This document shows positions 38,070-64,000 of a stretch of DNA of 64,000 nucleotides, one piece after another (position 1 is the first letter of the stretch; each line of letters starts with the position of its first letter). The position numbers were made by a program, and so were the translations under genes. Source of the stretch: an uncultured Methanosarcinales archaeon (GTDB lineage Archaea; Nanobdellota; Nanobdellia; Woesearchaeales; UBA10216); NCBI GenBank assembly GCA_964504135.1, contig CAZDCW010000003.1:427-64426 (forward strand), in the 5' to 3' direction. Under the pieces are notes generated by a model. The model searched no databases. It was not told where the DNA came from and worked only from the letters and a program-made list of their open reading frames with translations.

Positions 38070-38189
38070 ATATTACTGCCCAATCCTCCCCTGTATATGG
38101 CTTTGCAGTCTTTCTACATTGCTGGTGCAAATTAATTCCCGCCAAGGCTATGTTGTAGGAGGTGGCAGGGCCATTTGCCGCGTTGAGAT

Positions 38190-38293
38190 GCCCTGGTAGT
38201 GTAGTCCGGCCTATCATGCAGCCCTGTCAGCCGCAGTAGGCAGAACGGCTGCGACCCGGGTTCAAAACAAGTGTGAAAGTCCCGGCCAGGGCG
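38190..38293 (+). tRNA. tRNA-Asp (GUC) with two introns (canonical 37/38 and T-loop 59/60)
   Basis: Perfect 7-bp acceptor GCCCTGG/CCAGGGC. The D-arm follows the archaeal tRNA-Asp pattern. Anticodon stem CAGCC/GGCTG with loop CUGUCA, then about 16 nt of insert, then C. T-stem CCGGG/CCCGG encloses a 20-nt loop TTCAAA[ACAAGTGTGAAAG]T. No CCA is encoded. Confidence 0.6.
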
Positions 38294-38307
38294 CTTATGC
38301 TTAGGGT

Positions 38308-38411
38308 GGGCCGGTAGCGCAGCCTGGAGGCATGCTGGGCTATAGCGCGTCTGCCTTTTAAGCAGACGGTCACGGGTTCGAAACCAAGGCACGAAAGTCC
38401 CGTCCGGCCCT
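38308..38411 (+). tRNA. tRNA-Lys (UUU) with two introns (D-loop and T-loop 59/60)
   Basis: Acceptor GGGCCGG/CCGGCCC. D-stem GCGC/GCGC encloses a 24-nt loop, which includes an insert of about 15 nt. Anticodon arm TCTGC-CTTTTAA-GCAGA. T-stem ACGGG/CCCGT with loop TTCGAA[ACCAAGGCACGAAAG]T. Confidence 0.6.
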
Positions 38412-38433
38412 TTTATGGTATTGCAGGTAACAA

Positions 38434-38676
38434 ATGACCAAGAAGGTTGACGTAAAGAAACACGTGCTTGTGCCCAGGGGGCAGAAACTGGGTGAGAAGG
38501 AGAAGGAGGAGCTGCTTCAAAGGTACAGTATAGGTATTGCAGAGCTTCCCAGGATTAAGAAGAGCGACCCCATGCTGGGTGGAATGGGTGCAAGGCCAGG
38601 CGACGTGTTTAGGATTCAGAGGAACAGCCCTACTGCTGGAAAGACTGTGTTTTACAGGGTGGTTGTAAGTGGGTAG
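38434..38676 (+). CDS. rpoH: DNA-directed RNA polymerase subunit H (Rpb5 homolog)
   Basis: 80 aa. Ends in ...ARPGDVFRIQRNSPTAGKTVFYRVVV. Sits immediately upstream of rpoB. TATA-like ttttatgg lies about 20 nt upstream. Confidence 0.85.
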   Translation: MTKKVDVKKHVLVPRGQKLGEKEKEELLQRYSIGIAELPRIKKSDPMLGGMGARPGDVFRIQRNSPTAGKTVFYRVVVSG

Positions 38677-40165
38677 CCAGGAGATTCTTTTGAGGAAGTA
38701 TTTTGATGAGCAGTCGTTCATCAAGTCAGACATAGAGTCCTTCAATAACTTTATTGATGTTGAGCTTCCAAGGATTATTGCGGAGAACAGCGAGATTGAG
38801 CCGACGATAATTCCTCCAAATGTTGACGAGTTTAAGATAAAGTTTGACAAGGTCAGGGTTACCAAGCCGCAGATTATTGAGTCTGACGGAAGCGGTGAGA
38901 ATGAGGCCAAGTTTCCGATTGAGTCGAGGCTCAGGAAGATGACCTATGCTGCTCCTATGTACATTACTGTTAGCGCCCATATTAACGGCGCGCAGCGGGA
39001 ATCCTTTGAGACCCAGATTGGGAATCTGCCTATTATGCTGAAGTCCAAGCAATGCCACCTGTACAGGCTGTCGAGGGAGGAGTTGATTGCGAGGGGCGAG
39101 GACCCTGATGACCCTGGCGGGTACTTCATTATCAACGGCACTGAGAAGGTGCTGGTTAAGGTTGAGGACCTGGCCGCAAACAGGTTTATTACAGACACGG
39201 ATAGTTCAAGCACGAGCAGGTTTGTTGGCAAGATTTTCTCTGAGTACAGCTCTTATAAGATCCCTCATTTGATTGAGAGGCTGAGGGACGGCATCTTCTA
39301 TCTTACTTTCACCAGGGTTAGGAGGATGCCTGTGATTGTTATCATTAAGGCGCTCGGCCTTATTAAGGACGAGGAGATTAGCAGGTTTATCTCGGCTGAG
39401 AGGCATTTTGATGAGATAATCGTTAATCTGCTTGAGGCGGCTGACATAAAGACAGAGGAGGACGCAGTGGATTATCTTGCAAAGAGGTCTGGCATTACCC
39501 AGTCCAAGGAGATAAGGATTGAGAGGATGCGTGAGCTGCTTGACAAGTACCTTCTGCCCCATCTCGGCACGTCGCCGAGGGACAGGCCGGTTAAGGCGTA
39601 TAATCTTTGCAAGATGCTGAAGAAGCTCATCCTCACTTTCAGGGGCGAGCTGGAGCTGGATGACAAGGATAACTATGCGAACAAGCGGCTCAAGCTGAGC
39701 GGCGACTTGCTTGCAGACCTTATCAGGGTTAACATGAAGGTACTTATTGGCGACCTTCTTTACAACTTTCAGCGGATAGTCAAGCGTGGGAAGTTTCCTA
39801 CCATTAAGGTTATTATACGCGAAAAGCTTCTTACGTCAAGGATTTACAGTTCTATGGCTACAGGGACGTGGACAGGCGGCCGCAAGGGCATCAGCCAGAG
39901 GATTCAGAGGCTTAATTATCTGGAGACCATGTCCCATCTTCAGAGGGTTGTCAGTCCCCTGTCGGCGACGCAGGAGAATTTTGAGGCGAGGGAGTTGCAC
40001 AGCACGCATCTTGGGAGGCTCTGCCCGATTGAGACTCCTGAGGGTACTAATATCGGGCTCAAGAAGAACCTTGCCCTGCTCGCGACTGTCAGCCAGGATA
40101 CTCCTGAGGATGAGCTTTTGAAGGCGTTGAGGTCGTTTGGCATGAAGCCGGTTGCTTTGAGGTAG
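38669..40165 (+). CDS. rpoB2: DNA-directed RNA polymerase subunit B'' (N-terminal half of split RpoB)
   Basis: 498 aa with Rpb2 N-terminal lobe/protrusion/fork domains. Followed immediately by B'. Confidence 0.95.
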   Translation: MGSQEILLRKYFDEQSFIKSDIESFNNFIDVELPRIIAENSEIEPTIIPPNVDEFKIKFDKVRVTKPQIIESDGSGENEAKFPIESRLRKMTYAAPMYITVSAHINGAQRESFETQIGNLPIMLKSKQCHLYRLSREELIARGEDPDDPGGYFIINGTEKVLVKVEDLAANRFITDTDSSSTSRFVGKIFSEYSSYKIPHLIERLRDGIFYLTFTRVRRMPVIVIIKALGLIKDEEISRFISAERHFDEIIVNLLEAADIKTEEDAVDYLAKRSGITQSKEIRIERMRELLDKYLLPHLGTSPRDRPVKAYNLCKMLKKLILTFRGELELDDKDNYANKRLKLSGDLLADLIRVNMKVLIGDLLYNFQRIVKRGKFPTIKVIIREKLLTSRIYSSMATGTWTGGRKGISQRIQRLNYLETMSHLQRVVSPLSATQENFEARELHSTHLGRLCPIETPEGTNIGLKKNLALLATVSQDTPEDELLKALRSFGMKPVALR

Positions 40166-40166
40166 G

Positions 40167-41969
40167 ATGGCTGAGGTCTATTTAAGCGGAAAGTTTGTGG
40201 GCGTAGTTGATAATCCTGCCGAGTTTGCGGAGAGGCTGAGGGAGGAGCGGAGAAAGGCAGCCCTTCCTGATGGCGTTAACGTTTGCTATGACCAGGAGGC
40301 CAATGTTGTTCAGGTGGAGGCTGGCAGGGGCAGGCTCAGGCGTCCGCTGATTATCGTCAGGGATGGGAAGCCTCTTTTGGCTGAGAGCCATTTAAGGCAG
40401 CTGGAGAGGAAGGAGATCAGCTGGTCAGACTTGGTCAGGCAGGGCATAATTGAGTATCTTGATGCGGCAGAGGAGGATAATGCGCTTGTCGCCTTCTTTG
40501 AGGCCGATTTGACTCCAAAGCACACCCATCTGGAAATTACTCCCCTTGCCATTTTCGGGCTGATTACTTCGCTTGTCCCTTATGCTAATTTCAACTCGGC
40601 GCAGAAGGTGAATACTGGCTCAAAGAACCAGAAGCAGGCTCTTGGTTTTTATTCCGCAAATTATCCGATTAGGATGGATATGGACGTAAACCTCCTGCAT
40701 TATCCTCAGGCGCCGATAGTGAGGTCGGTGATGCATGGAATTGGCGATTATGACCAGCACCCTTCTGGCCAGAATATTATTGTTGCGGTCATGAGTTATA
40801 AGGGCTATAATATGGAGGACGCGGTCATAATAAACAAGGCGAGCATTGACAGGGGTTTTGGCCGCGGGAGCTATTACAGGCCGATGATTGCTGAGGAGCT
40901 CAGGTACAGCGGCGGGCTGGTTGATGAGATTCAGATTCCGAACAAGGATATCAAGGGTTACAAGAGTGAGAAAGATTATCGTTATCTTGAGGAGGACGGC
41001 ATTATTTATCCTGAGGCCCAGGTGAGGGAGGGTGATGTGGTGATTGGCAAGACCTCTCCTCCAAGGTTCCTGAGCGGCGTTGACCAGTATAGGCTGGCGA
41101 CAGACACCCGTCGGGAAAGCTCGCTTACGATGAAGCATGGGGAGGAAGGGATTGTTGACATGATTCTTATTACTGAGAATGCAGAGGGAAACAAGCTGAT
41201 TCAGGTTAAGCTGAGGGACCAAAGGATTCCTGAGGTTGGTGACAAGCTGACTTCCAGGCACGGCCAGAAGGGCGTGGTTGGCTTGATAGTTCCGGCTGCG
41301 GATATGCCTTTTACAGCCTCAGGAATAACGCCTGACCTGCTTTTCAGCCCGCATGGGATTCCGAGCAGGATGACGATGGCGCATCTTATAGAGCTTCTTG
41401 CAGGAAAGGTCGGCGCGCTGTCAGGAAGGTATGTTGATGGCACGATTTTCAATTCAGAGCCTGAGGAGGCTGTCAGGAAGGAGCTTCAGGGCCTGGGCTT
41501 CAGGGACGATGGGCTTGAGGCCATGTATAATGGCGAGACAGGCGAGAGGTTCATGGTCAGGATTTTTGTTGGAAATATGTATTACCTCAGGCTTAAGCAC
41601 ATGGTGGCTAATAAGCTTCATTCAAGGGCGCGGGGCCCGATTCAGCTTCTTACAAGGCAGCCGACAGAGGGACGGGCGAAGGAGGGCGGGCTTAGGCTTG
41701 GTGAGATGGAGAAGGATACCTTTGTGGCTCATGGCGCGTCGCTCCTGCTGAAGGAGAGGTTTGACTCGGACAGGACTATTGTGCCTGTTTGTGAGGGATG
41801 CGGCCTTGTCGCCATTCATGATGACTATAGGAAGCGCAACTATTGCCAGAACTGCGAGGAGTCTACGGAGATTAACTTCATAGAGATCAGCTATGCTTTC
41901 AAGCTGATGCTGGACGAGTTTAAGAGCATGTGCATTTATCCTAAGATGCAGCTGAAGAACAAGTACTGA
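40167..41969 (+). CDS. rpoB1: DNA-directed RNA polymerase subunit B' (C-terminal half of split RpoB)
   Basis: 600 aa. Contains the hybrid-binding motif GDK...HGQKG and a C-terminal Zn ribbon (CEGCG...CQNC). Confidence 0.95.
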   Translation: MAEVYLSGKFVGVVDNPAEFAERLREERRKAALPDGVNVCYDQEANVVQVEAGRGRLRRPLIIVRDGKPLLAESHLRQLERKEISWSDLVRQGIIEYLDAAEEDNALVAFFEADLTPKHTHLEITPLAIFGLITSLVPYANFNSAQKVNTGSKNQKQALGFYSANYPIRMDMDVNLLHYPQAPIVRSVMHGIGDYDQHPSGQNIIVAVMSYKGYNMEDAVIINKASIDRGFGRGSYYRPMIAEELRYSGGLVDEIQIPNKDIKGYKSEKDYRYLEEDGIIYPEAQVREGDVVIGKTSPPRFLSGVDQYRLATDTRRESSLTMKHGEEGIVDMILITENAEGNKLIQVKLRDQRIPEVGDKLTSRHGQKGVVGLIVPAADMPFTASGITPDLLFSPHGIPSRMTMAHLIELLAGKVGALSGRYVDGTIFNSEPEEAVRKELQGLGFRDDGLEAMYNGETGERFMVRIFVGNMYYLRLKHMVANKLHSRARGPIQLLTRQPTEGRAKEGGLRLGEMEKDTFVAHGASLLLKERFDSDRTIVPVCEGCGLVAIHDDYRKRNYCQNCEESTEINFIEISYAFKLMLDEFKSMCIYPKMQLKNKY

Positions 41970-52013: not shown

Positions 52014-52673
52014 TTAGCGTGTGAATTTCCACCATATCATCTGCGCCACTATTGATATTCCGTCCATTACTGTGGTGCCCTTGTATTTGTCCACGTATAT
52101 CGTTTTTACAGGCACCTGCTGGAATTTTATCCTGTGCTTTCCTGTGAGGGCTATCATTTCTGACTCTACGCTGTAGTCTGTGGCCTTCCATCGTATCTTC
52201 TGGTAGGCTTCCTTTTTAAAGGCTCTGTATCCGCATTGCGTGTCGTTTATTCTCATGTGGAACAGCATCCTGACTGCTGTGCCTATGAACCAGTTCCCGA
52301 ATCTGAATACAAGGGGCATTTCTCCTCCAAGCCTTCTGTATCCGAATACCATGTCCGCACCTTCAAGTGCCTTGATGAAGTGCGGGATTTCCTCTGGGTC
52401 GTGCTGGGTGTCCGAGTCCAGCAATATGATTGCGTCAGCGCCTTGCATGACTGCGTAGTCGCAGCCTGTCTTGAGGGCTGCTCCCTTGCCGAGGTTTATT
52501 AGGTGCCTTAGCACCGCAACCCCTGCTTTTTGCGCCTCTTCTGCTGTTGCGTCCCTGCTTCCATCGTCAACTACTATTATCCGCCGCGGGTCTATCTGTT
52601 TTTTTGTCTTTATGATTACTTCTGTGATGTGCTTCTGCTCGTTGTAGGCCGGGATTACAGCGAATGCGTTCAT
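52014..52673 (-). CDS. family-2 glycosyltransferase (dolichyl-phosphate hexose synthase-like)
   Basis: VIPAYNE...IIVVDDGS.D.T, DxD (LDSDTQHD). 219 aa. 4-nt overlap with aglB. Confidence 0.8.
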   Translation of the reverse strand: MNAFAVIPAYNEQKHITEVIIKTKKQIDPRRIIVVDDGSRDATAEEAQKAGVAVLRHLINLGKGAALKTGCDYAVMQGADAIILLDSDTQHDPEEIPHFIKALEGADMVFGYRRLGGEMPLVFRFGNWFIGTAVRMLFHMRINDTQCGYRAFKKEAYQKIRWKATDYSVESEMIALTGKHRIKFQQVPVKTIYVDKYKGTTVMDGISIVAQMIWWKFTR

Positions 52674-55600
52674 CTTATCTTTTCTATCCTGAACCTGAAG
52701 AATAGCGTCTTGTTGCCCAGCGGGTGCTTGTCCGGCTCTGTCCCGTATGCCTTTTCCGGGCTTATCCTGGCGGTCTTTTCCTCGCCGGCCTTCATTCCAG
52801 TCATCTGCTCTTCAAGGCCAGGTATTATTTCTGATTTGCCCATTGTGAAGGTGAAGGGCGCTGAGTCTTCACCGAATGGCTGGTCTTTTGTTATGTTGCG
52901 GCTGTCCCAGTTGTATATTGAGCTGTCAAACACAGTCCCGTCCTCCAGGTATCCTATGTAGTTGAATGTCACGCTGTCCTGCGGCCCTACACTTTCCTTT
53001 GTTGTCAGCTCTGATTTTGTGTGCATCTCCCCGCCTTTCCAGTCCACTCTGTATACGTATATTTCCGCTCCTGTTATGCTTCTCTGGTATGTGAGGAGCT
53101 TGAAGTGCCTTAGGCTGTGGCCTTTCATGAAGAACATCCTTGTGAACATGCTTGCGTTCAGCTCTGGCGCTGCCATTACCATCCTGTAATTGTCGCCTTC
53201 GGGTATTATTGTCGCGGCCCAGTCTATGCCTACGTTTTCAGAGTGGGATTTCTGCTCAACCCCTTTTTCCGTAGCTATTGCCACCGCCCTCAGGTTCTTT
53301 GGCTCCTGGCCCTCAAGCAGGAGCACTGCGTCGTTTGCTGAGAAATTTATTGCAGGGACTATGTTCAGTCTCCTTCCACCGCCTGCGTCCAGGCCTATGG
53401 TGTCGCATATTCCTGTTTTTCCGTCGCAGTTCAGTATTTGTCCGTAGCTTGGCCAGGGGCTTATCCATGTGTTTCCCTGTGCGTCATTCATGGCCTGGAT
53501 GTCGTAGTAGGTTTGCTCTGCCTGTTCACTTGTGTAGTTGAGCTTGCTCTGCATTTCTGCTATTGCCTCTTCTGCGGGCTTTTCCCGCAGCCTGTTCCAT
53601 ATGTATGCCTTTTCAAAGTCCCATGAGCCGAAGTGCGCCCATACTCCTGATTTTCCTATCATGTCTTCTGATGCTATGAAGAAGGCTTCCGGAGGCTCGC
53701 AGTGTGTGTATTTTAGCACTGCCTCTGCCTGCCCGGCAGTCATCCCGTATTTCTGCCTGAGCTTTTTGCCTGCCGCCTCCCTGTCGTCCTTGAATACGCT
53801 GTAAAGTATGCCTATTGACATGAGGGTGTCGTTTCCGTTTGCCTTCTGGACTTCCTCGAATGCGTTGTTGCCCCCGCAGTCAAGCATCCTTAGTATGCCT
53901 ACAGCCATTTCCTCATCGTCAGTTTTTAGTATCTGCCCTACCCAGTGTGCCTGCGGGCTTCCCTGGGTTGTGCCGTCAAATGTCACAGGCCTTTCGGCGA
54001 GCGCCTTGAAGTGGTGCCCGAAGTCCCACCAGCTGGTTATTATCGCTGTCCTGTTTGAGTTGTCCCTTATTGCAGCCAGTGAGTTGTACCATGCGTCGTT
54101 TATTATTGGCACGTCCTGTTTTGCTATGCTTATAGAGACCGCCCATGCGTTGGATGGCACCATTACAAGGACAAGCAGCAGCGCGAATACGGTTACGGAT
54201 GCTATTGTCCGTTGGATTTTCAGGTCAGTTGTCAGCGAGTGCTCCAGCCTCTTGTGTATGAACCCTATGGCGACTCCGAAGGCTATTGCGAATGCAGGCA
54301 CGAGCAGCATTACAAACCTTATTCCCTTGGTGCTGGCATACATTGTCACTATGAACCATATTATCAGCAGCGCGGCCACTCTCATGTCTATTGGCTCGTG
54401 CATTATTCCGGCATAGAGTGTCCGGGCCAGTATTGGCAGGCTGAGGAGTATGAGGAACCATTCCTGCACAAGTTCGCCTCTCATCAGCAGGAGGATAAGC
54501 CAGTATGCTGCTGAGCCCAGTATGAACATCCATTCCTGCCAGTCCACCCTCTTCTTGGTCATGCTTATCATTATTCCCAGGAGGGCTGTGAAGAAGAATA
54601 CAGGGCCGCCCACGTTGTTCATTATGTCGTTGATGCCGCCCTCGTTTAGTTCTGCCACGGTTGTAAGCACGTTTGGGAAAAGGCTTTCCATGACAGGCGC
54701 CTTTATCCTGGTGAATGCCAGCGAGCCTATCGGGCTGAGTATGAAGGTGTCAAGGCCTGAAAGCAGGCTTACGAATATCCCGGAGAACAGTATGAACATT
54801 AAGGTTACTGTTAGCGCTGTTTTTACCTCATGGGTGAACAAATTCCCGATTCCTTTTGCAATCTGCTTTCTGTTTGCAAGGATTATGTAGCCGAAGTATA
54901 CTGCTGATGCTGCAAGCAGGAAGTTGTATATGAACCACCATCCTCCCCATATTCTTGAGAATAGGCCCATGCTCAGGCCTGCAAGGAAGGTCAGGGCAGT
55001 TTGCCATTTCAGGCTTTTGGACTCGATGGCCATGAGGAAGAGGAATGCGGTGAGCACAGAGAAGAACAGTACCCATGTGTCAGAGTCCCCATGTCCGAAG
55101 AGGCTTCTTGAAAGCGCGGATGGGTTGAGCGCCATCAGCAGGCCTGCAAAAAGCCCTCCTACATCTCCTGCTATTCTTCTGCAGATGAAGAACACTATTA
55201 CAGCCGCGAGGGCTGCTATTATTACAGGGTAAAGCATCTCCGCGTACATTAGTGTCATTCCCGGGTTGAATATCCTGAGAATCCTGTAGAATAGGGCTAT
55301 GGAGTATGGGTGGAAAGTATCTTCCGGCTCTACATATCTTCCTTCTGGCGCCAGCTGGAATGTGTCGTAGCTTCTCCCGTTTTTTATAGTGTCGCCGGGG
55401 TAGCCGTGGTCAACTATGTTTCTTGCGTACCTGAACCAGTAGTAGGGGTCTATGTCAGGCATGTATGCATTTCCCTGGTCGTCCAGGTAGAATGTTTTGA
55501 AGTATTCTGCTGTCTGCTGGACTTGCTGTTTGATGTTTGCTGACTGGCCTGCGTATTGCCCTGTCCTGAATGCGTATTCTCCTTTTTTCAGGGCCTCGTT

Positions 55601-56143
55601 GAAGTCCTTGTCTATGAGCTCGTTCTTCTGCCTGTCCGGAAGGTTCGGGTACTGTGCCAGGATTGACTGCTCGATGTCAGCCCTTAGGAATCCGTATGTG
55701 CTTTGCTTTGCCCAGTCTTCGGCGTACAGCATTTGGCCGGGAAGCATCCTTACATATGCGGCTGCCGCGGCTATTATTATGATGGCCGCCACAATGAGCA
55801 GCTGCCTGCTGTTTTTATGGAAGAATCCTGATATGGCTTGGGTGTCAAGGCTTAGCTCGTCCTCATCCTGCGGGGCTTTTTCACGGTGTGCCTTTGGGCC
55901 TTGCTTGAAGAGGCCTTTTAATTTTCCAAATGTTTCGCCTATGCTGACCTCATCTTCAGCATCTTCATGTGCTGCTTCATGCTTTTTGTGGTGTTCGTGC
56001 TCTGGCCGCTGTTCGTGCTGCTCTGCTTTCTCTTCCTTGTGATGTTCTTCCTTGCCTGGCTGCCCTTCCTTCTTTTTTCCGAATGGCCACATCTTGCCAA
56101 GGTCTATGTCGAGGTCGTCTTCCTTTTCATCCATTTTTCCCAA
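52670..56143 (-). CDS. aglB: archaeal oligosaccharyltransferase AglB (STT3) with N-terminal His/Glu-rich extension and C-terminal FKBP-type peptidyl-prolyl isomerase domain
   Basis: 1157 aa. About 13 TM helices and the WWDFGHHF (WWDYG) motif. The extracytoplasmic C-terminal domain ends in a clear FKBP module (VTFNYIGYLEDGTVFDSS ... PFTFTMGKSEIIPGLEEQMTGMKAGE...ISPEKAYG). Confidence 0.85.
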   Translation of the reverse strand: MGKMDEKEDDLDIDLGKMWPFGKKKEGQPGKEEHHKEEKAEQHEQRPEHEHHKKHEAAHEDAEDEVSIGETFGKLKGLFKQGPKAHREKAPQDEDELSLDTQAISGFFHKNSRQLLIVAAIIIIAAAAAYVRMLPGQMLYAEDWAKQSTYGFLRADIEQSILAQYPNLPDRQKNELIDKDFNEALKKGEYAFRTGQYAGQSANIKQQVQQTAEYFKTFYLDDQGNAYMPDIDPYYWFRYARNIVDHGYPGDTIKNGRSYDTFQLAPEGRYVEPEDTFHPYSIALFYRILRIFNPGMTLMYAEMLYPVIIAALAAVIVFFICRRIAGDVGGLFAGLLMALNPSALSRSLFGHGDSDTWVLFFSVLTAFLFLMAIESKSLKWQTALTFLAGLSMGLFSRIWGGWWFIYNFLLAASAVYFGYIILANRKQIAKGIGNLFTHEVKTALTVTLMFILFSGIFVSLLSGLDTFILSPIGSLAFTRIKAPVMESLFPNVLTTVAELNEGGINDIMNNVGGPVFFFTALLGIMISMTKKRVDWQEWMFILGSAAYWLILLLMRGELVQEWFLILLSLPILARTLYAGIMHEPIDMRVAALLIIWFIVTMYASTKGIRFVMLLVPAFAIAFGVAIGFIHKRLEHSLTTDLKIQRTIASVTVFALLLVLVMVPSNAWAVSISIAKQDVPIINDAWYNSLAAIRDNSNRTAIITSWWDFGHHFKALAERPVTFDGTTQGSPQAHWVGQILKTDDEEMAVGILRMLDCGGNNAFEEVQKANGNDTLMSIGILYSVFKDDREAAGKKLRQKYGMTAGQAEAVLKYTHCEPPEAFFIASEDMIGKSGVWAHFGSWDFEKAYIWNRLREKPAEEAIAEMQSKLNYTSEQAEQTYYDIQAMNDAQGNTWISPWPSYGQILNCDGKTGICDTIGLDAGGGRRLNIVPAINFSANDAVLLLEGQEPKNLRAVAIATEKGVEQKSHSENVGIDWAATIIPEGDNYRMVMAAPELNASMFTRMFFMKGHSLRHFKLLTYQRSITGAEIYVYRVDWKGGEMHTKSELTTKESVGPQDSVTFNYIGYLEDGTVFDSSIYNWDSRNITKDQPFGEDSAPFTFTMGKSEIIPGLEEQMTGMKAGEEKTARISPEKAYGTEPDKHPLGNKTLFFRFRIEKIR

Positions 56144-57626: not shown

Positions 57627-58595
57627 ATGCTAAGGGATGAGGTTCTTAAGCTGGATCCCGGCAGGGTAGCCCTCTGGGATTTTCTCAGGTCAGGGAGCCT
57701 TGAGCGGGGCGATACTATTAGGATTGGCGGCGCATCTTACTCGATGTTAACTGGAGGGTCTGCCAGTTGTGGGCTTGGCACTGCTAACCTTTTCCTCTAT
57801 CATTCGCCTGACATCAACCGTAATTACAGCACTTTGGATGAGGTGGTTAGGGACCCTGCGCTTCTTGACGCGTTGGACCCTGACCCTGATAAGCCTAGCA
57901 TCCGCAATCGGGTTGCCATTACCTACAATTACTGGCATGCCTTCTTTGATGCGGTTAAAGGGCTTCCTGGGGGGTTTTCAGCAGTGGAGCTGGACAGGCT
58001 TCAGTCAGCCGGTTACATGGTGCCTTTTTTGCAGCAGCTGGCCCTTTCAGGCCGCATGGGCACGCCTGAGCTTGAGGCCAGGCAGGGCGTGTGGCCGCTG
58101 GCGTATCATTCGCACAGCTCTGATTCAATAATTTTTTCCCCTCGCTACTCCTCGCTTGTTCAATTATACGCTGGCCAGAGGACTGTCTCTGACATCCATG
58201 GCCTCAGCAGGATTATTTTTGGCAGCAGTGATGCCGAGCAGTGGAGGAGGCTTTATGTCAGGAATCACCAGGAGTTTATGGCTTACCTTGGCGTTGGCTG
58301 CCTGGATGCTGCGCCTGGGCCGCGGCTTTTTAGTGGGGGCTGCCTTCCGGGCATGGCCTTTTTTGCAGCCATCACAGCCATAGGCATAGCGGCCAGCAGC
58401 GGTTTTCTGCTTGGCAGGGGTCCGGCTGCGCCAGCAGCAACGCCTGTTCCGGTTGCCGAGGAGCCTGCTGCCACACCGGCCGCAGTAATCCCCCCGACTA
58501 CTCTAACCCCCACTCTCTATATTCCAAGTGTGCTTAATGGCACATCGTCAGGCACGGCTTATGTTCCGGTGATAGTCAGCGGAAGGCCTGACTGA
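57627..58595 (+). CDS. paralog 1 of an unrecognised single-TM membrane protein family (MLRDEV...ALWDFL N-domain, Pro/Thr-rich C-tail)
   Basis: The N-terminal block MLRDEVLKLDPGRVALWDFLRS is shared with the ORFs at 58623 and 60667. It is followed by a soluble domain of about 250 aa, one TM helix, and a PT-rich tail with an NGT sequon. The track ORF begins 38 codons upstream, at 57513. Confidence 0.5.
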   Translation: MLRDEVLKLDPGRVALWDFLRSGSLERGDTIRIGGASYSMLTGGSASCGLGTANLFLYHSPDINRNYSTLDEVVRDPALLDALDPDPDKPSIRNRVAITYNYWHAFFDAVKGLPGGFSAVELDRLQSAGYMVPFLQQLALSGRMGTPELEARQGVWPLAYHSHSSDSIIFSPRYSSLVQLYAGQRTVSDIHGLSRIIFGSSDAEQWRRLYVRNHQEFMAYLGVGCLDAAPGPRLFSGGCLPGMAFFAAITAIGIAASSGFLLGRGPAAPAATPVPVAEEPAATPAAVIPPTTLTPTLYIPSVLNGTSSGTAYVPVIVSGRPD

Positions 58596-58622
58596 AAAAT
58601 CAGCATTAGTAGCCATTATCTA

Positions 58623-59831
58623 ATGGTTACAAACACAAGTTTTTTAAAAGCTCATGACTTCCCTGGGCTGATGCTAAGGAATGAAGTAAGTGCAAAGCTG
58701 GATGATGCCAGGCTCGGACTCTGGGATTTTCTCACGTCGGCTGGCCCTGACAGACCTCTGGCTGGACTTACCATTTCTGTAGGCGGCATCAACTATAAAA
58801 TTGACCCTGCAGCAGCTGGAGGTATGGACCCTTTACATGCTTCTCTGTTCCTTACTAGCCCTAAAGGAGACCACAGGTATGAGGGCTTGGATGATCTGAT
58901 TTTTGATATGGGTGGTTTTGAAGTTGGGGATAAGCCTGATGAACAGGCGCCCCTTCTCCGCCGCCTTGAGGCAACTAGGTGGTTCTGGGGCAGCTTTAGT
59001 GTCGCAGTGGCAAACCTGCCAAATGAATTTCCTCCGGGTACGGTAGACAGCCTTCACTCAGGGCATTACCTTAAGCCTTTCCTGCAGCAGTTGACTGCGG
59101 AGAATCACATCAGGAGGGCGCTTGACTCTAATCGCGGCAGAACTCCATTGGAGTACGCATGGCACAGCATTGGTTCATTTGATTCGCCTTCTTCGATAAC
59201 TTTTACACAGTCAAACAGGGATCAGCTTGTTATAGAAAGCATCCATGGCCTTACAGGGATAAGGTTTAAGGATGCCGGCGCTGAGGCGCTGAGGCGCCAT
59301 TACCTCAGAATCCATACGGATTTCATGAACTACCTTGGGGTTCCATGCGTTGCTGCTCCGAGGGATATTGGCGGAATTCTGGAATCTGGTTTGGCTGCCG
59401 CTCTCCGAATGCAACATAAGCCCCGCCCAGTGGAGCCTTTTCTTGCTGCCTTTCTTATAGGGGTGGTTGGCTATGCGTCATATGCCTGTCTCCCCCAGCC
59501 TCCTTCAGGCTCTTCGCTTGCCGCAGCCACGCCTACTCCGGCAGTCTCAGCCACGCCTATGGCTGCAACACAGGTAGCCGCTTCAACCCCGGTGCCTGTT
59601 TCAACGCCTCAGGCTGTTGCTCCTCTGGTTCCCGGGGTTCTTGGAAGGGATTATCATCTCGGCCTTCCGGTGGTTCCTTATGGAGAGCAAACCAGCCGCA
59701 GGTATTCAGTGAATGCGCCAATAGTCCCGAGTGGAAATCTGCCTGGGCTCCCGACGCCTGCTGCTTCGCCGGCTCCGAGGGCTGGGCAAGGCTTTCTGCC
59801 TGTTGTGCCGGCAAGCTACACTTCAAAGTGA
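58623..59831 (+). CDS. paralog 2 of the same family
   Basis: MLRNEVSAKLDDARLGLWDFLTS, conserved internal blocks (YLKPFLQQL; HGLTGIRF...RRHYL..H.DFMNYLGV.C), a TM helix, and a P/T/A-rich tail. The start may be the internal Met at 58671. Confidence 0.5.
   Translation: MVTNTSFLKAHDFPGLMLRNEVSAKLDDARLGLWDFLTSAGPDRPLAGLTISVGGINYKIDPAAAGGMDPLHASLFLTSPKGDHRYEGLDDLIFDMGGFEVGDKPDEQAPLLRRLEATRWFWGSFSVAVANLPNEFPPGTVDSLHSGHYLKPFLQQLTAENHIRRALDSNRGRTPLEYAWHSIGSFDSPSSITFTQSNRDQLVIESIHGLTGIRFKDAGAEALRRHYLRIHTDFMNYLGVPCVAAPRDIGGILESGLAAALRMQHKPRPVEPFLAAFLIGVVGYASYACLPQPPSGSSLAAATPTPAVSATPMAATQVAASTPVPVSTPQAVAPLVPGVLGRDYHLGLPVVPYGEQTSRRYSVNAPIVPSGNLPGLPTPAASPAPRAGQGFLPVVPASYTSK
59494..59831 (+). repeat. about 338-bp segment duplicated nearly identically at 61466..61803 (3' ends of paralogs 2 and 3)
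   Basis: Nucleotide identity runs from the cccagcctccttcaggctc block to the stop codon, with 3 substitutions near the 5' edge. The flanks diverge immediately after the stop. Confidence 0.85.
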
Positions 59832-60054
59832 GCTTAGAACCGGCTTCGCGTGGTTATAGCAAATCACGTTAATAATCGGAACTTTGTTCCGCTCAAATAA
59901 GTGATTTGCTTATTAGTAAATAACCTTGCAATACTTTTTTAATATACGAAAATTAAGGTTATTTACTATAGTTGGCGGAATCCAACTTGGTGAAGTTTGA
60001 TTTCCACGCAACGCGTCGCAAAAGTTTTTTAAATCCTGCGACATTCGCCTTTGG

Positions 60055-60573
60055 GTGAATAATGCAGGAAAATTTTTTCTCGGCACAGTTGCCGTTGCTT
60101 ATGCCGTGCTTAACATCATGTGCGGGATTGAGGTGGTTAGTCTTAGGCGTGAGGTTGATGCGCAGAGGGCGTCTTCAGCCACAAATGCACAGGTTAAAAA
60201 TTTGTCCGATTACGTATCAGGCTTGCCCGGCAGGCTATCAGATTCCGAGAGGGCAGCAGTTGAAAGAGAAACAAGAATCCGGGATTATCTTTCAGGCCGC
60301 ATTGAAGGCCTGAGCACTAGGGTTGACGGACTCGAAAGATGGAAGAGTGCCACTGAATATGGCGCGAACAAGGTTGAAACACTGTGGAATCTCAGGGATG
60401 TACAGCGCGGGCAGATTGAAGATTTGAGGCGCGATCTTGCTGCAGTGAGGAGTTTATACAATGCGCAGGGAAGTAAGAATGAGTCGTTTTACAACAGTAT
60501 AACTAATTTGGAGAGGAAGCTTGCAGAACTCTCAGGAATTCCCAATCCCGACCCTGAAGTGCAGGGCAGGTAG
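60055..60573 (+). CDS. N-terminally membrane-anchored coiled-coil protein
   Basis: 172 aa with a TM helix at residues about 8-28 and then heptad-like charged repeats. Confidence 0.4.
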   Translation: MNNAGKFFLGTVAVAYAVLNIMCGIEVVSLRREVDAQRASSATNAQVKNLSDYVSGLPGRLSDSERAAVERETRIRDYLSGRIEGLSTRVDGLERWKSATEYGANKVETLWNLRDVQRGQIEDLRRDLAAVRSLYNAQGSKNESFYNSITNLERKLAELSGIPNPDPEVQGR

Positions 60574-60666
60574 TCCTGCTTTAACATGCATTTTCACTGA
60601 TTTTTTCCTGGAAAACCGCAAAGCAAAAGCAAAACCTTTTTACAACGAATCAGATTCCTCATTTTA

Positions 60667-61803
60667 ATGCTAAGGGATGAAGTTGTTGGAAAGCTGGATC
60701 CCTCCAAGGTTGCCCTGTGGGGTTTTCTTCGCTCTATTGGACCTGGCGAGCCATTGTCAGGCGAGGCTGTTAACAGGAGTATTAATGTCAGGGGCGTAGA
60801 TTACATGATAGAATCCGCCAGTGGAAGGTCCTTGGACATCGGCTCGGCTGGCATCTCTTTGCATAATTCTGCGGGGCATGCCCTCAACTATGATACGCTG
60901 GATGCGGTTATGGAGGATTATGAGCTCACTGCTTCATTTGGGAATCAGGACGCGCAGCAGACGGCAGCCCTTCTCAGCCGCATGGAGCAGACTTTGCTAT
61001 TCTGGAAGGCTTTTGCTTCTGAACTGAGGGAGATGCCCGCAAAGTTTTCTGCGGCTGAATTGGACGGCCTTCATTCCAGGCGTTATATGGCTGCGTTCAG
61101 GCAGCAGCTTATACCTTCAGGAAGAGTTATCAGGAAGGGTTCGCTTGATGCCAAGCAGGATAGACAGCCGCTGGAATACTGTTGGGATACGTATGATTCT
61201 ATAACCTTTGTAAGGCCAGGCTCTCCGGGTGATCATAATGCGCAGATTGTGGTGGAAGGTGTCCACGCTCTGCGCGGGATTATTTTTAACGATCCGCAGG
61301 CAGAGGATTTAAGGCGTCTTTATGTGGCAAATCATATTGACCTGATGGCCTATCTTGGCGTGAAATGTGCAGTCGGTGCCAGGCAGCCTGGCAGCCTCTT
61401 TCGGTATGCCTTGGCTGCCGGGGGGCTCGTTGTCCTGCTGGGTTACAGTTCCCTGACCTTCCTCACCCAGCCTCCTTCAGGCTCCTCGTTTGCCGCAGCC
61501 ACGCCTACTCCGGCAGTCTCAGCCACGCCTATGGCTGCAACACAGGTAGCCGCTTCAACCCCGGTGCCTGTTTCAACGCCTCAGGCTGTTGCTCCTCTGG
61601 TTCCCGGGGTTCTTGGAAGGGATTATCATCTCGGCCTTCCGGTGGTTCCTTATGGAGAGCAAACCAGCCGCAGGTATTCAGTGAATGCGCCAATAGTCCC
61701 GAGTGGAAATCTGCCTGGGCTCCCGACGCCTGCTGCTTCGCCGGCTCCGAGGGCTGGGCAAGGCTTTCTGCCTGTTGTGCCGGCAAGCTACACTTCAAAG
61801 TGA
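60667..61803 (+). CDS. paralog 3 of the same family
   Basis: MLRDEVVGKLDPSKVALWGFLRS. The C-terminal roughly 112 aa are identical to those of paralog 2. Confidence 0.5.
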   Translation: MLRDEVVGKLDPSKVALWGFLRSIGPGEPLSGEAVNRSINVRGVDYMIESASGRSLDIGSAGISLHNSAGHALNYDTLDAVMEDYELTASFGNQDAQQTAALLSRMEQTLLFWKAFASELREMPAKFSAAELDGLHSRRYMAAFRQQLIPSGRVIRKGSLDAKQDRQPLEYCWDTYDSITFVRPGSPGDHNAQIVVEGVHALRGIIFNDPQAEDLRRLYVANHIDLMAYLGVKCAVGARQPGSLFRYALAAGGLVVLLGYSSLTFLTQPPSGSSFAAATPTPAVSATPMAATQVAASTPVPVSTPQAVAPLVPGVLGRDYHLGLPVVPYGEQTSRRYSVNAPIVPSGNLPGLPTPAASPAPRAGQGFLPVVPASYTSK

Positions 61804-61860
61804 AATGGCGCATTATATAATCCTTAAAGTCAGTTTTTTATGCTGTGGCCGCTTACATGA

Positions 61861-62727
61861 TTGTTGATGGGCAGGTTTTTTTCAGCAGTGCTTGGGCTTT
61901 CGGCTGCACTGGCCGTTGGCGCTGTTCTGTATAATTCAGATGTTGACAGGAGGAATTATCGCAGGGAGTTCATGGATGCAGCGGCAGGCCATGCCTCTGT
62001 CCTGTCCTCAAACGATTCTGCCTTGCAGAGTGATATTTCCGCAATTGCAAAGGAGGTCAGGCAGCTTAGGTCTTCCACAGAGCTTCAGTTAAGTTCGATT
62101 CAGGGGGTTTACACCAGCATTTCAAGGCGGCTTGAGAATGTTGAGTCAGGCGTTGTGTCTGTCGGGAAGGATACCTCTGCGATGAGGACCTCAGTCTCCG
62201 GCTCTTCAGAGGAGGTTGTGCTCAGGAATAACCAGATTCTTGCCGAGTTCAGGGACTTGCGCAAGGACTATGCCCTCATTATTGAGCTGCTGAATTCCAG
62301 CCCGCAGGGTCCTTTGTTTCATCCGCAGTACGGCTGGCTGGGAAGTAAGGAAAATTTTGGCAGCGCGGTTCCGGATTACTGGACAACCGACAGGTCTGTT
62401 CTGCTGCGCTTTGCACCTCAGATTAGGGCTTCCATTTCGGCGCCCCTTTCAGAGGTTTACCAGGACAGACCCCAGTACTCCTTTCTTGTGGCCAGGAATG
62501 CGGTTGGAAGCCTTGATGAGGCCATTGACGGCCTGGACAGTAATGGCGAGTTCATGGACCGCGCCTCTACGCTGCTTGTTTATTCAGTCCAGCCTGCCGG
62601 AGCCAGCCGTCAGTTGTATCAGTTGTCTTTGGTTCTTGCAAACACAGAAAGCCATCCTCTTGGCGCCCTGAGAAGCATCCCGATTTCAGGCCAGTTGGCC
62701 GGGGAATTGGCAAAGCCTTCGTCTTAG
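61861..62727 (+). CDS. N-terminally membrane-anchored coiled-coil protein with C-terminal globular domain
   Basis: 288 aa with a TM helix at residues 6-24, a coiled-coil region, and a C-terminal domain of about 130 aa. Confidence 0.4.
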   Translation: MLMGRFFSAVLGLSAALAVGAVLYNSDVDRRNYRREFMDAAAGHASVLSSNDSALQSDISAIAKEVRQLRSSTELQLSSIQGVYTSISRRLENVESGVVSVGKDTSAMRTSVSGSSEEVVLRNNQILAEFRDLRKDYALIIELLNSSPQGPLFHPQYGWLGSKENFGSAVPDYWTTDRSVLLRFAPQIRASISAPLSEVYQDRPQYSFLVARNAVGSLDEAIDGLDSNGEFMDRASTLLVYSVQPAGASRQLYQLSLVLANTESHPLGALRSIPISGQLAGELAKPSS

Positions 62728-62870
62728 CATGATGACGAATTCCAAACAGTAAGTTTATATAAATCCTTATAATTGTAATTATTTCATAATGGTGACATTG
62801 CAATAAACTTTTTATATTAGCCCGGTTTCAGGCAGCAGACTGATGTTTAACAACCTTAGGGGGTGTAGCT

Positions 62871-63650
62871 ATGACAAATAGTCCAAATGCTTCTAGACGG
62901 GATTTTGTGAGGGGAGGAGGCCTTGCAGGGCTTGCTGCTGCACTTCACCCGGGTGTATTGGCTTCTGCATTAACAGGCCCTTCAGCAGGTTCGTCAGCCC
63001 TGTCAGCTTCCTCTGGGACTGTGGGCCCATTAGAGCGTTTTCTGGCCTATAGGTCTTTGTCTTATCCTCAGCCAGATACCAAGCGTCCGGATTATGTTGT
63101 TCCGAAGGGTGCTTCAGCAGCCCCTGGTCTGTACATAGTTCAGGCTCCTCTGTTTGAAGGTTCTAAACATTCTGCTCAGGAAAGTCAAAGGAGGCCCTGG
63201 AGCACTCAGAATGGTTGGCTTGATACGAGGACGATAAAGCAAGTTCTGCAGCAGTACGGTGCGGTTTTGGACCTAGAACAACTAAAGGCTGAAATTGGAG
63301 CTTTATTGACTGTAGAACTTGCCGACAGGCTGTATGTGTCTGAAATACGTGCCTTAACCGAGTTTGCCAGCAATTCTCATCGCGATTTGGGAGTAGCGAC
63401 CAATGCTGCTGAAAAGCACTGGGAATTTAATGGCGCGGCGTTTGACGGCGTGCTTGGCCCTGGTAATTATGAGGCTGTTGTGTTGCAGGGTTACGTTGAC
63501 GGACCGTATTGTTTTGTCAAGATTAAGGCCGAGGCTCCTGGCTCTTCATTGGGCGGAGTTGCATATGCCTTTGCAATGACCCGTCCAGTGGCTCTTGAGT
63601 TGCAGGATAGGGTTAACCAGGTTAGAAGGCAGTATGATCTGCCTCGCTGA
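62871..63650 (+). CDS. Tat-signal secreted protein, unknown function
   Basis: Twin-arginine motif SRRDFVRGGGLAGLAAAL in the first 30 residues. A strong SD (agggggtg) lies 6 nt upstream. Confidence 0.5.
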   Translation: MTNSPNASRRDFVRGGGLAGLAAALHPGVLASALTGPSAGSSALSASSGTVGPLERFLAYRSLSYPQPDTKRPDYVVPKGASAAPGLYIVQAPLFEGSKHSAQESQRRPWSTQNGWLDTRTIKQVLQQYGAVLDLEQLKAEIGALLTVELADRLYVSEIRALTEFASNSHRDLGVATNAAEKHWEFNGAAFDGVLGPGNYEAVVLQGYVDGPYCFVKIKAEAPGSSLGGVAYAFAMTRPVALELQDRVNQVRRQYDLPR

Positions 63651-63654
63651 AAAA

Positions 63655-64000
63655 TGGATTTTTCCAGGGCTTCAAGAATCTTGTTTGTTATTCTTGTAAA
63701 TTTCATGCTGCTTGCAACTCCTTTGGCTGTTGCTGATGACGAAGGCGGAGAGGACAGCGGTGGCGATGATGGCGGTGACTGGGGGGATGGTGGTGATGAA
63801 GATTCAGGTGATGTAGGCGATTACCCTGACCCTGATTATCCTGAGCCTGATACTCCTGTTCCTGATTATCCTGAGCCTGATACTCCTGTTCCTGATTATC
63901 CTGAGCCTGACACTCCTACTCCAGACGTCCCTGCCCCTGATACTCCTGTCCCGCCTCCAACCCCAACTCCAGTAACCCCCACTCCTCCAGGCCCTGAGCC
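63655..64000 (+). CDS. secreted acidic protein with Pro-rich tandem repeats (3' end truncated by the window)
   Basis: ATG at 63655. The signal peptide is FVILVNFMLLATPLAVA. Downstream are a D/E/G-rich block and PDYPEPDTPV repeats. It is not in the track because no stop falls before the window end. Confidence 0.45.
63831..63920 (+). repeat. 3 tandem copies of a 30-nt unit (cctgattatcctgagcctgatactcctgtt) inside the last CDS
   Basis: Two of the three copies are exact and one has three substitutions. They encode PDYPEPDTPV. Confidence 0.8.

Follow-up and report, generated by a model that had tools for sequence, protein, structure and literature searches.

In 2006-2009, Sugahara et al. reportedly described tRNA genes with multiple introns from Thermoproteales and other archaea. 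As many as three introns per gene have been recorded in Crenarchaeota, above all in Thermoproteales, as well as in N. equitans, M. kandleri, K. cryptofilum and ARMAN-1/2, and the known non-canonical sites include 20/21, 53/54, 56/57 and 59/60, sometimes alongside the canonical site 37/38 (PMC4033280, PMC4090602). In ARMAN-2 (Ca. Micrarchaeum), a DPANN archaeon, the precursor of tRNA-Cys(GCA) carries a 13-nucleotide (nt) intron at 59/60 in a motif of the hBH or bulge-helix-loop (BHL) type, and this precursor is cleaved in vitro by the epsilon2 EndA of its host and also by crenarchaeal EndA (Fujishima et al. 2011, PMC3239211). Here we analyze a stretch of 64 kilobases (kb) from contig CAZDCW010000003.1, referred to below as the window, in which adjacent genes for tRNA-Asp(GUC) and tRNA-Lys(UUU) contain two short inserts each. 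We conclude that these are very probably two functional tRNA genes, likely co-transcribed, each with two short introns of the endonuclease type, i.e., of the bulge-helix-bulge (BHB) class. Multiple-intron tRNA genes being already documented in archaea, the genes in the window represent the same architecture in another DPANN phylum and imply no new mechanism.

The resemblance to the ARMAN-2 precursor includes the 59/60 site, the relaxed hBH/BHL geometry, a DPANN host and, for the T-loop intron of tRNA-Asp, the length of 13 nt. The two cases differ in tRNA identity and in DPANN phylum, and the ARMAN-2 EndA is an epsilon2 three-unit enzyme. Thermoproteales genes are similar in that one gene may hold as many as three BHB-type introns, that non-canonical sites are used and that relaxed motifs are common, but their hosts belong to TACK and possess an (alpha-beta)2 EndA with the crenarchaeal loop. 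Thermoproteales intron families also show evidence of transposition, which is not convincingly seen among introns of the type described here. T-loop introns of Asp and Lys genes from the same genome are marginally more alike than other pairs (permutation p ~0.02), a difference that genome composition could explain.

For Woesearchaeota, the literature on tRNA introns that we located consists of the survey by Kaneta et al. 2018 (PMC5829648), considered here at the level of its summary statements. According to these, DPANN lineages, with one Woesearchaeota genome included, have markedly more disrupted tRNA genes, the rise in disruption is associated with alpha4-type EndAs bearing an 'L3' insertion, and tRNAscan-SE 2.0 was unable to give complete tRNA sets. 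At that summary level the survey does not contain the present Asp-Lys locus or the order-wide positional conservation described below, and we found no paper on this locus or on order-wide conservation of a 59/60 intron in Woesearchaeota.

Two adjacent tRNA genes with four inserts

The two genes and their inserts are located in the window as follows.

38190..38293, + strand: tRNA-Asp(GUC) gene, 104 nt including discriminator G; CCA not encoded; 44 orthologues in related loci
38230..38245, + strand: Asp intron 1, GCCGCAGTAGGCAGAA, 16 nt, canonical position 37/38; C32-U35 (CUGU) pair with GCAG
38267..38279, + strand: Asp intron 2, ACAAGTGTGAAAG, 13 nt, T-loop 59/60; T54-A57 (TTCA, 38261-38264) pair with TGAA (38274-38277)
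38308..38411, + strand: tRNA-Lys(UUU) gene, 104 nt including discriminator T; CCA not encoded
38328..38342, + strand: Lys intron 1, AGGCATGCTGGGCTA, 15 nt, D-loop after G19; GCCU (nt 15-17a, 38322-38325) pairs with GGGC (38337-38340)
38383..38397, + strand: Lys intron 2, ACCAAGGCACGAAAG, 15 nt, T-loop 59/60; TTCG (38377-38380) pairs with CGAA (38392-38395)

The genes were delineated with a custom, intron-tolerant locus scanner that requires a 7-base-pair (bp) acceptor stem, a 5-bp T stem, the sequence TTCRA and a T-loop of at most 49 nt. Asp and Lys were the sole credible tRNAs that it returned for the window. In both genes the acceptor stem is Watson-Crick paired at 7/7 positions and the 5-bp T stem is followed by TTCRA; the anticodon arms are canonical (CUGUCA..C in Asp, CUUUUAA in Lys), and the surplus length over a tRNA amounts to 29 nt in Asp and 30 nt in Lys. 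With the splice site marked by a caret, the bulges around Asp intron 1 read CA^g on the 5' side and AA^C38 on the 3' side, those around Lys intron 1 read GG^a and UA^U, respectively, and the 3' bulge is AG^T60 in both T-loop introns. Once spliced, the Lys D-loop would read AGCCUGG+UA.

The window thus contains two real, adjacent tRNA genes, Asp-GUC and Lys-UUU, with two inserts each, which confirms what an earlier note on this DNA had observed; its reading is upheld as well, with refinements to the motif type and to the D-loop boundaries. Coordinates and scanner agree with its two 104-nt genes with perfect acceptor stems, canonical anticodon arms and a surplus of about 30 nt; the 16-nt insert that it placed after position 37 of Asp was found there, and its T-loop inserts of 13-15 nt are the 13-nt Asp and 15-nt Lys inserts at 59/60. 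The insert of about 15 nt that it reported in the Lys D-loop is also real, and is refined to exactly 15 nt, after G19.

Relatives were gathered by a search with RpoB'', keeping one genome per species, which yielded 80 loci (designated L001 and so on); the neighborhood on the rpoH side served as the anchor for locating the orthologous loci. The syntenic Asp-Lys pair lies upstream of rpoH in most of them, with inserts at matching sites. The parsed set consists of 78 well-formed genes, 45 Asp and 33 Lys, counting the window and its near-duplicate L001. Among these, an insert at 59/60 is present in 66 (43/45 Asp and 23/33 Lys), with lengths of 13-40 nt and a median of 28; 36 genes carry an insert at 37/38, and 25 carry one in the D-loop (21 Lys and 4 Asp), most of those in Lys ending in GGGCAA^UA. 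All three sites are occupied in five Lys genes. The spliced exons have a mean identity of 85-87% and are conserved over ~45 genomes whose RpoB'' identity ranges from 67 to 99%; compensatory changes occur in their anticodon, D and T stems. The interiors of the T-loop introns, at only 36-40% identity, are essentially unrelated.

Splice helices and intron-less relatives

A single splice rule fits all three sites: a run of four exon nt, separated from the 5' splice site by 2 nt, pairs with four intron nt that are likewise separated by 2 nt from the 3' splice site. In the window, the resulting exon:intron helices are CUGU:GCAG, UUCA:UGAA, UUCG:CGAA and GCCU:GGGC. Each is a 4-bp central helix with predicted cleavage sites 2 nt to its 3' side on each strand, the arrangement that characterizes BHB-class introns. 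The same register is favored in the orthologues, in which the mean pairing is 3.91 of 4 in the T-loop versus at most 2.42 when shifted, 3.69 of 4 at 37/38 versus at most 2.19 (36 orthologous introns), and 3.28 of 4 in the D-loop versus at most 2.36. Counted by cells, 97% of the T-loop exon:intron helix is paired in register, and the T stem and T-loop helix taken together are 98.7% paired, compared with at most 65% when slid.

Covariation in the T arm was counted over 64 orthologous T-loop-insert sequences, 50 of them distinct, and the observed score was reached by 0 of 500 shuffles. Nucleotide 57 is the only position free to vary; among the 50 distinct sequences it forms A:U with its partner in 28 cases, G:C in 14 and G:U in 3, while the other 5 have no pair there. 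The compensating difference between TTCA..TGAA and TTCG..CGAA to which the earlier note had drawn attention is therefore not confined to the window, where it is present, but extends across the orthologous inserts.

At the T-loop, a 3-nt bulge beside the T stem contains the 3' splice site and reads AG^U in 46 genes and AA^U in 12. The splice consensus of the lineage includes YGAAAG^U for the 59/60 site and GGGCAA^UA for the D-loop. The T-loop 5' splice site (AA^N) sits in the loop, not in a closed bulge. The inner helix, h', has 0-1 bp in three of the introns in the window and 2 bp in the Lys D-loop intron, and the strict hBHBh' motif, which calls for two 3-nt bulges, each between helices of 2 bp or more, is not formed. 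Because the 5' splice site lies in the loop and h' has 0-1 bp in most T-loop inserts, the motifs are of the relaxed hBH or bulge-helix-loop class, which is a recognized variant, and not strict hBHBh'. The BHB-like splice substrate postulated in the earlier note is upheld, with the refinement that the motif is relaxed and not a full bulge-helix-bulge, h' having 0-2 bp and the 5' site lying in the loop.

Relatives without inserts provide natural controls, and at the T-loop, the D-loop and the anticodon loop alike the presence/absence polymorphism has exactly the predicted junctions. Intron-less T-loops read TTCRAAT (L071, L048, L051, L075), specifically TTCAAAT in the Asp gene of L071. The predicted mature D-loop, AGCCUGGUA, is identical to the D-loop of the intron-less L075, L051 and L068, and the intron-less D-loops AGCCTGGTA/CA/TTA (L075, L016, L014) match the predicted spliced forms. 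At the anticodon loop, 22 Asp orthologues without a 37/38 intron read CTGTC[AG][CA], compared with a predicted junction of CTGTCRC.

The inserts also account for the behavior of tRNA finders. ARAGORN, in default or intron mode, reported zero tRNAs in the whole unspliced 64-kb window, and with lowered thresholds it returned obvious false positives and a truncated 'tRNA-Lys' at 38330-38395. Rfam gave no match at the gathering threshold in the window and none at E<=10 on 38100-38500, i.e., the unspliced loci fall outside the tRNA family RF00005 at its gathering score, and a fixed-spacing (12-nt) T-loop-intron pattern had no match in the window. When all inserts were deleted in silico, ARAGORN identified a perfect tRNA-Asp(gtc) of 75 nt and a tRNA-Lys(ttt) of 74-76 nt depending on the choice of D-loop junction, the rule-spliced form being 74 nt. 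Deletion of one insert per gene gave no correct ARAGORN call for Asp or Lys. Applied to all 78 genes, the splice rule generated products of 72-76 nt that ARAGORN called as Asp(gtc) or Lys(ttt) in 78/78 cases, compared with only 4/78 before splicing (74/78 missed in default mode).

With RF00005, intron-less orthologues used as controls score 63-72 bits (72 bits for the Lys genes of L075 and L051) and orthologues with only a canonical intron score 47-60 bits; every T-loop-insert orthologue tested was missed, L001 among them. Because intron-less and canonical-intron-only orthologues do score, the failure of RF00005 on the loci in the window is attributable to the T-loop and D-loop inserts. Rejection by ARAGORN and Rfam is a limitation of the tools and not evidence against the genes. 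The earlier note had offered rejection of both loci by prediction tools as a reason to abandon its reading; ARAGORN and Rfam do formally reject both, yet the spliced forms and the intron-less orthologues are recognized.

Other arrangements of inserts occur in the relatives. An extra insert at the 5' anticodon-stem/loop junction (~31/32) is present in the Lys genes of L037 (2597-2703), L057 (759-885), L070 (2551-2645) and L080 (2610-2732). It is joined by a D-loop insert in L057 and L080, and L057 adds a T-loop insert, giving three introns at a set of sites unlike that in the window. Four Asp orthologues, L023 (2430-2559), L029 (2410-2559), L030 (1606-1756) and L068 (2483-2608), combine the 59/60 insert with a long D-loop insert (~27-47 nt) that contains an internal hairpin (e.g., CAGCGC...GCGCTG); the Asp gene in the window has no D-loop insert. 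In many relatives a tRNA-Tyr(GUA) gene (CCCCGC..., C1:G72) is the third syntenic gene, 0.2-2 kb upstream, as in L002 (192-317), L004 (486-613), L010 (211-346), L016 (1618-1773), L017 (959-1115), L018 (1356-1488) and L071 (1257-1383). These Tyr genes have a long 37/38 intron, to which L010, L016 and L017 add a 59/60 insert ending in UGAAAG^U or UGGAAG^U.

Proposed splicing and rival readings

The steps of maturation can be proposed by analogy with established archaeal tRNA splicing, from which the cleavage, the enzyme involved and co-transcription are all extrapolated. Asp and Lys are probably transcribed as one precursor, as suggested by the 14-nt spacer between them, the T-run after Lys and a conserved GCTAT box upstream. 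In this precursor, exon nt 32-35, 54-57 or 15-17a would pair with four intron nt shortly upstream of the 3' splice site, and the resulting 4-bp helix would stack on the neighboring anticodon, T or D stem. A 3-nt bulge would then contain the 3' splice site, and the 5' site would be located in the loop, two nt beyond the helix. RNase P and RNase Z would trim the ends of the precursor, each motif would be cut by EndA at its two splice sites, and an RtcB-type ligase would join the exons. Since no CCA is encoded, it would be added after splicing, and the mature products would be a tRNA-Asp of 75 nt and a tRNA-Lys of 74 nt. In both genes U54-R57 are tied up by the T-loop helix and, in Lys, G15-U17a by the helix of the D-loop, where G18 and G19 fall in the bulge; therefore the D/T elbow cannot form until the introns are gone. 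Relaxed motifs at non-canonical sites require an EndA of broad specificity.

This reading draws on gene structure, helix and covariation, positional conservation among relatives and the exact junctions of intron-less orthologues, all of which are observed directly. Several considerations pull in the other direction: (i) Excision of the inserts is something that we infer from the sequence. (ii) In 46/66 T-loop inserts h' has 0-1 bp, and classical alpha4 or alpha'2 endonucleases are not expected to cut such motifs. (iii) The weak UUCA:UGAA helix is absent from the minimum free energy (MFE) structure that RNAfold predicts for the Asp precursor. (iv) No EndA (Pfam PF01974 / PF02778) was detected among the 68 open reading frames (ORFs) of the window in a Pfam scan covering these 64 kb only. 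(v) The scanner demands perfect acceptor and T stems, so the insert frequencies hold for well-formed genes only. As for the energies, the RNAfold MFE structure of the whole Lys gene does contain the T stem, the 4-bp helix, the 3-nt bulge and an 11-nt loop. With the Asp helix unpredicted and the global MFE structures of the precursors not being cloverleaves, the argument therefore rests on comparative evidence and not on energies.

The inserts might instead stay in the mature molecule as T-loop, D-loop and anticodon-loop expansions of an unusually long tRNA. Standard tools give no guidance either way, and splicing is deduced here from genes and not from transcripts. We nevertheless consider retention very unlikely, as the inserts range from 13 to 40+ nt among close relatives with unconstrained interiors, and some orthologues have none, exactly at the predicted junction. 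Sixteen nt after nt 37 would destroy the anticodon loop, and a helix that ties up T54-R57 and G15-U17a, with G18/G19 in the adjacent 5' bulge, would leave the elbow contacts unable to form. A similarly small likelihood attaches to the loci being decaying tRNA pseudogenes with insertions, functional Asp and Lys tRNAs being encoded elsewhere. The window covers 64 kb of a genome in which other copies are possible, and rejection of the two loci by ARAGORN and Rfam counts in favor of pseudogenes. Against this, the exons are conserved, with compensatory stem changes, over the genomes described above, every stem is perfect, the inserts are confined to sites that form the splice helix, and synteny beside the rpo operon is kept. 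The preference of the earlier note for a splice substrate over a pseudogene is borne out by the exon conservation, the perfect stems and the restriction of inserts to helix-forming sites.

The identity of the first gene was also considered, since ARAGORN, once only the T-loop insert is removed, alternatively calls it a tRNA-Tyr(GUA) with a shifted canonical intron, CAGCCGCAGTAGGCAG. This assignment is extremely improbable. In the 22 orthologues without a 37/38 intron the sequence is C(U)UGUC(A/G), which gives GUC as the anticodon, and the first gene is therefore Asp and not Tyr(gta). The gene in the window carries G1:C72 and G73, unlike the separate Tyr genes of relatives, which begin CCCCGC.. 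(C1:G72), and the comparative helix register (CUGU:GCAG, then 2 nt) puts the cut at 37/38. Finally, the window derives from a metagenome-assembled genome (MAG), in which inserts could arise as assembly artefacts or be remnants of mobile elements. We assign almost no probability to this explanation, given that the same architecture is present in dozens of independent assemblies from different studies, that the near-identical L001 shares all four inserts, differing at one base, and that 13-16 nt is far below the size of insertion sequence elements, miniature inverted-repeat transposable elements or group I/II introns. Chance as the source of the architecture was likewise rejected, since it recurs in dozens of independently assembled genomes. 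Two functional tRNA genes with BHB-class introns thus remain the best explanation.

Host, locus neighborhood and implications

The best RpoB'' match among the 80 loci is a groundwater MAG of Candidatus Woesearchaeota (L001, JACPTG010000001.1; 99% identity). The other matches, at 67-84% identity, are labelled Woesearchaeota or Nanoarchaeia or belong to mislabelled 'Methanosarcinales' MAGs. As the RpoB'' matches are of the Woesearchaeota type, the host is a DPANN archaeon, and the lineage clue that the earlier note saw in the intron positions proved sound. The window and L001 have all four inserts in common and identical exons; one base differs in the Asp T-loop intron, which contains ACAAGTG in the window (38267-38279) and ACGAGTG in L001 (2594-2606). 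The window therefore represents a near-identical strain or assembly, separate from the GTDB representative record JACPTG010000001.1.

The tRNA pair lies directly upstream of the genes rpoH-rpoB''-rpoB'-rpoA'-rpoA''-L30e-NusA. Within 38669-41969 the rpoB gene comes in two parts, B'' (498 aa) and B' (600 aa), and rpoA likewise is split into A' and A'', an organization that agrees with a non-TACK (DPANN) placement. Two features flank the pair.

38145..38151, + strand: GGCTATG box, ~43 nt upstream of tRNA-Asp; candidate promoter element predicted from sequence
38434..38676, + strand: rpoH (Rpb5-like; Pfam PF01191, 1.3e-25), first gene of the operon; Rpb2 and Rpb1 domains in the next ORFs

A GCTAT core, often within GAGGGATTGCTATGCC, is found 7-67 nt upstream of tRNA-Asp in 25/44 related loci (L023, L029, L031, L032, L042, L053, L057 and L072 among them), compared with a background of 5% of random 70-nt windows. 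The box may be a lineage-specific promoter (TATA-like) element.

The syntenic tRNA-Tyr of relatives is absent from the window. Two antisense ORFs, at 38132-38392 (- strand; 86 aa, no Pfam match) opposite the tRNA genes and at 38413-38910 (- strand; 165 aa) opposite rpoH, are in all likelihood spurious and might be wrongly annotated as hypothetical proteins. Farther along the window, 52673-56143 (- strand) encodes a 1157-aa protein in which an STT3 oligosaccharyltransferase is joined to a C-terminal FKBP-type peptidyl-prolyl isomerase, an unusual fusion with glycosyltransferase genes nearby. The 3' end of the window (57769-64000) holds an uncharacterized block of eight consecutive ORFs (76-402 aa) without a Pfam match at E<=1e-4.

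The value of these genes lies in the annotation of tRNAs that common tools miss and in the large natural set of DPANN splice motifs that they supply. ARAGORN and Rfam miss such genes, and the noncanonical-intron models of tRNAscan-SE 2.0 were trained on introns from other lineages (Crenarchaeota, Euryarchaeota and Thaumarchaeota); reports of 'missing tRNAs' in DPANN genomes, and completeness estimates based on tRNA counts, are therefore likely to be affected. The 66 T-loop, 36 canonical and 25 D-loop introns provide a lineage-specific splice-site consensus that could be converted into a detection model.

More tentatively, the Asp 59/60 intron, found in 43/45 genes, might be ancient and essentially fixed in Woesearchaeota and, like the D-loop and 37/38 introns, be cut by an alpha4-type 'L3' EndA, which would constitute a third independent route to broad specificity; we regard this scenario as possible but doubtful. 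The strong retention could reflect a function of this 59/60 intron, such as ordering maturation or shielding the gene from integrating elements, rather than the difficulty of precise loss. The locus offers a well-sampled case for the co-evolution of tRNA introns with EndA specificity and marks the EndA of Woesearchaeota as an enzyme of interest for relaxed substrates.

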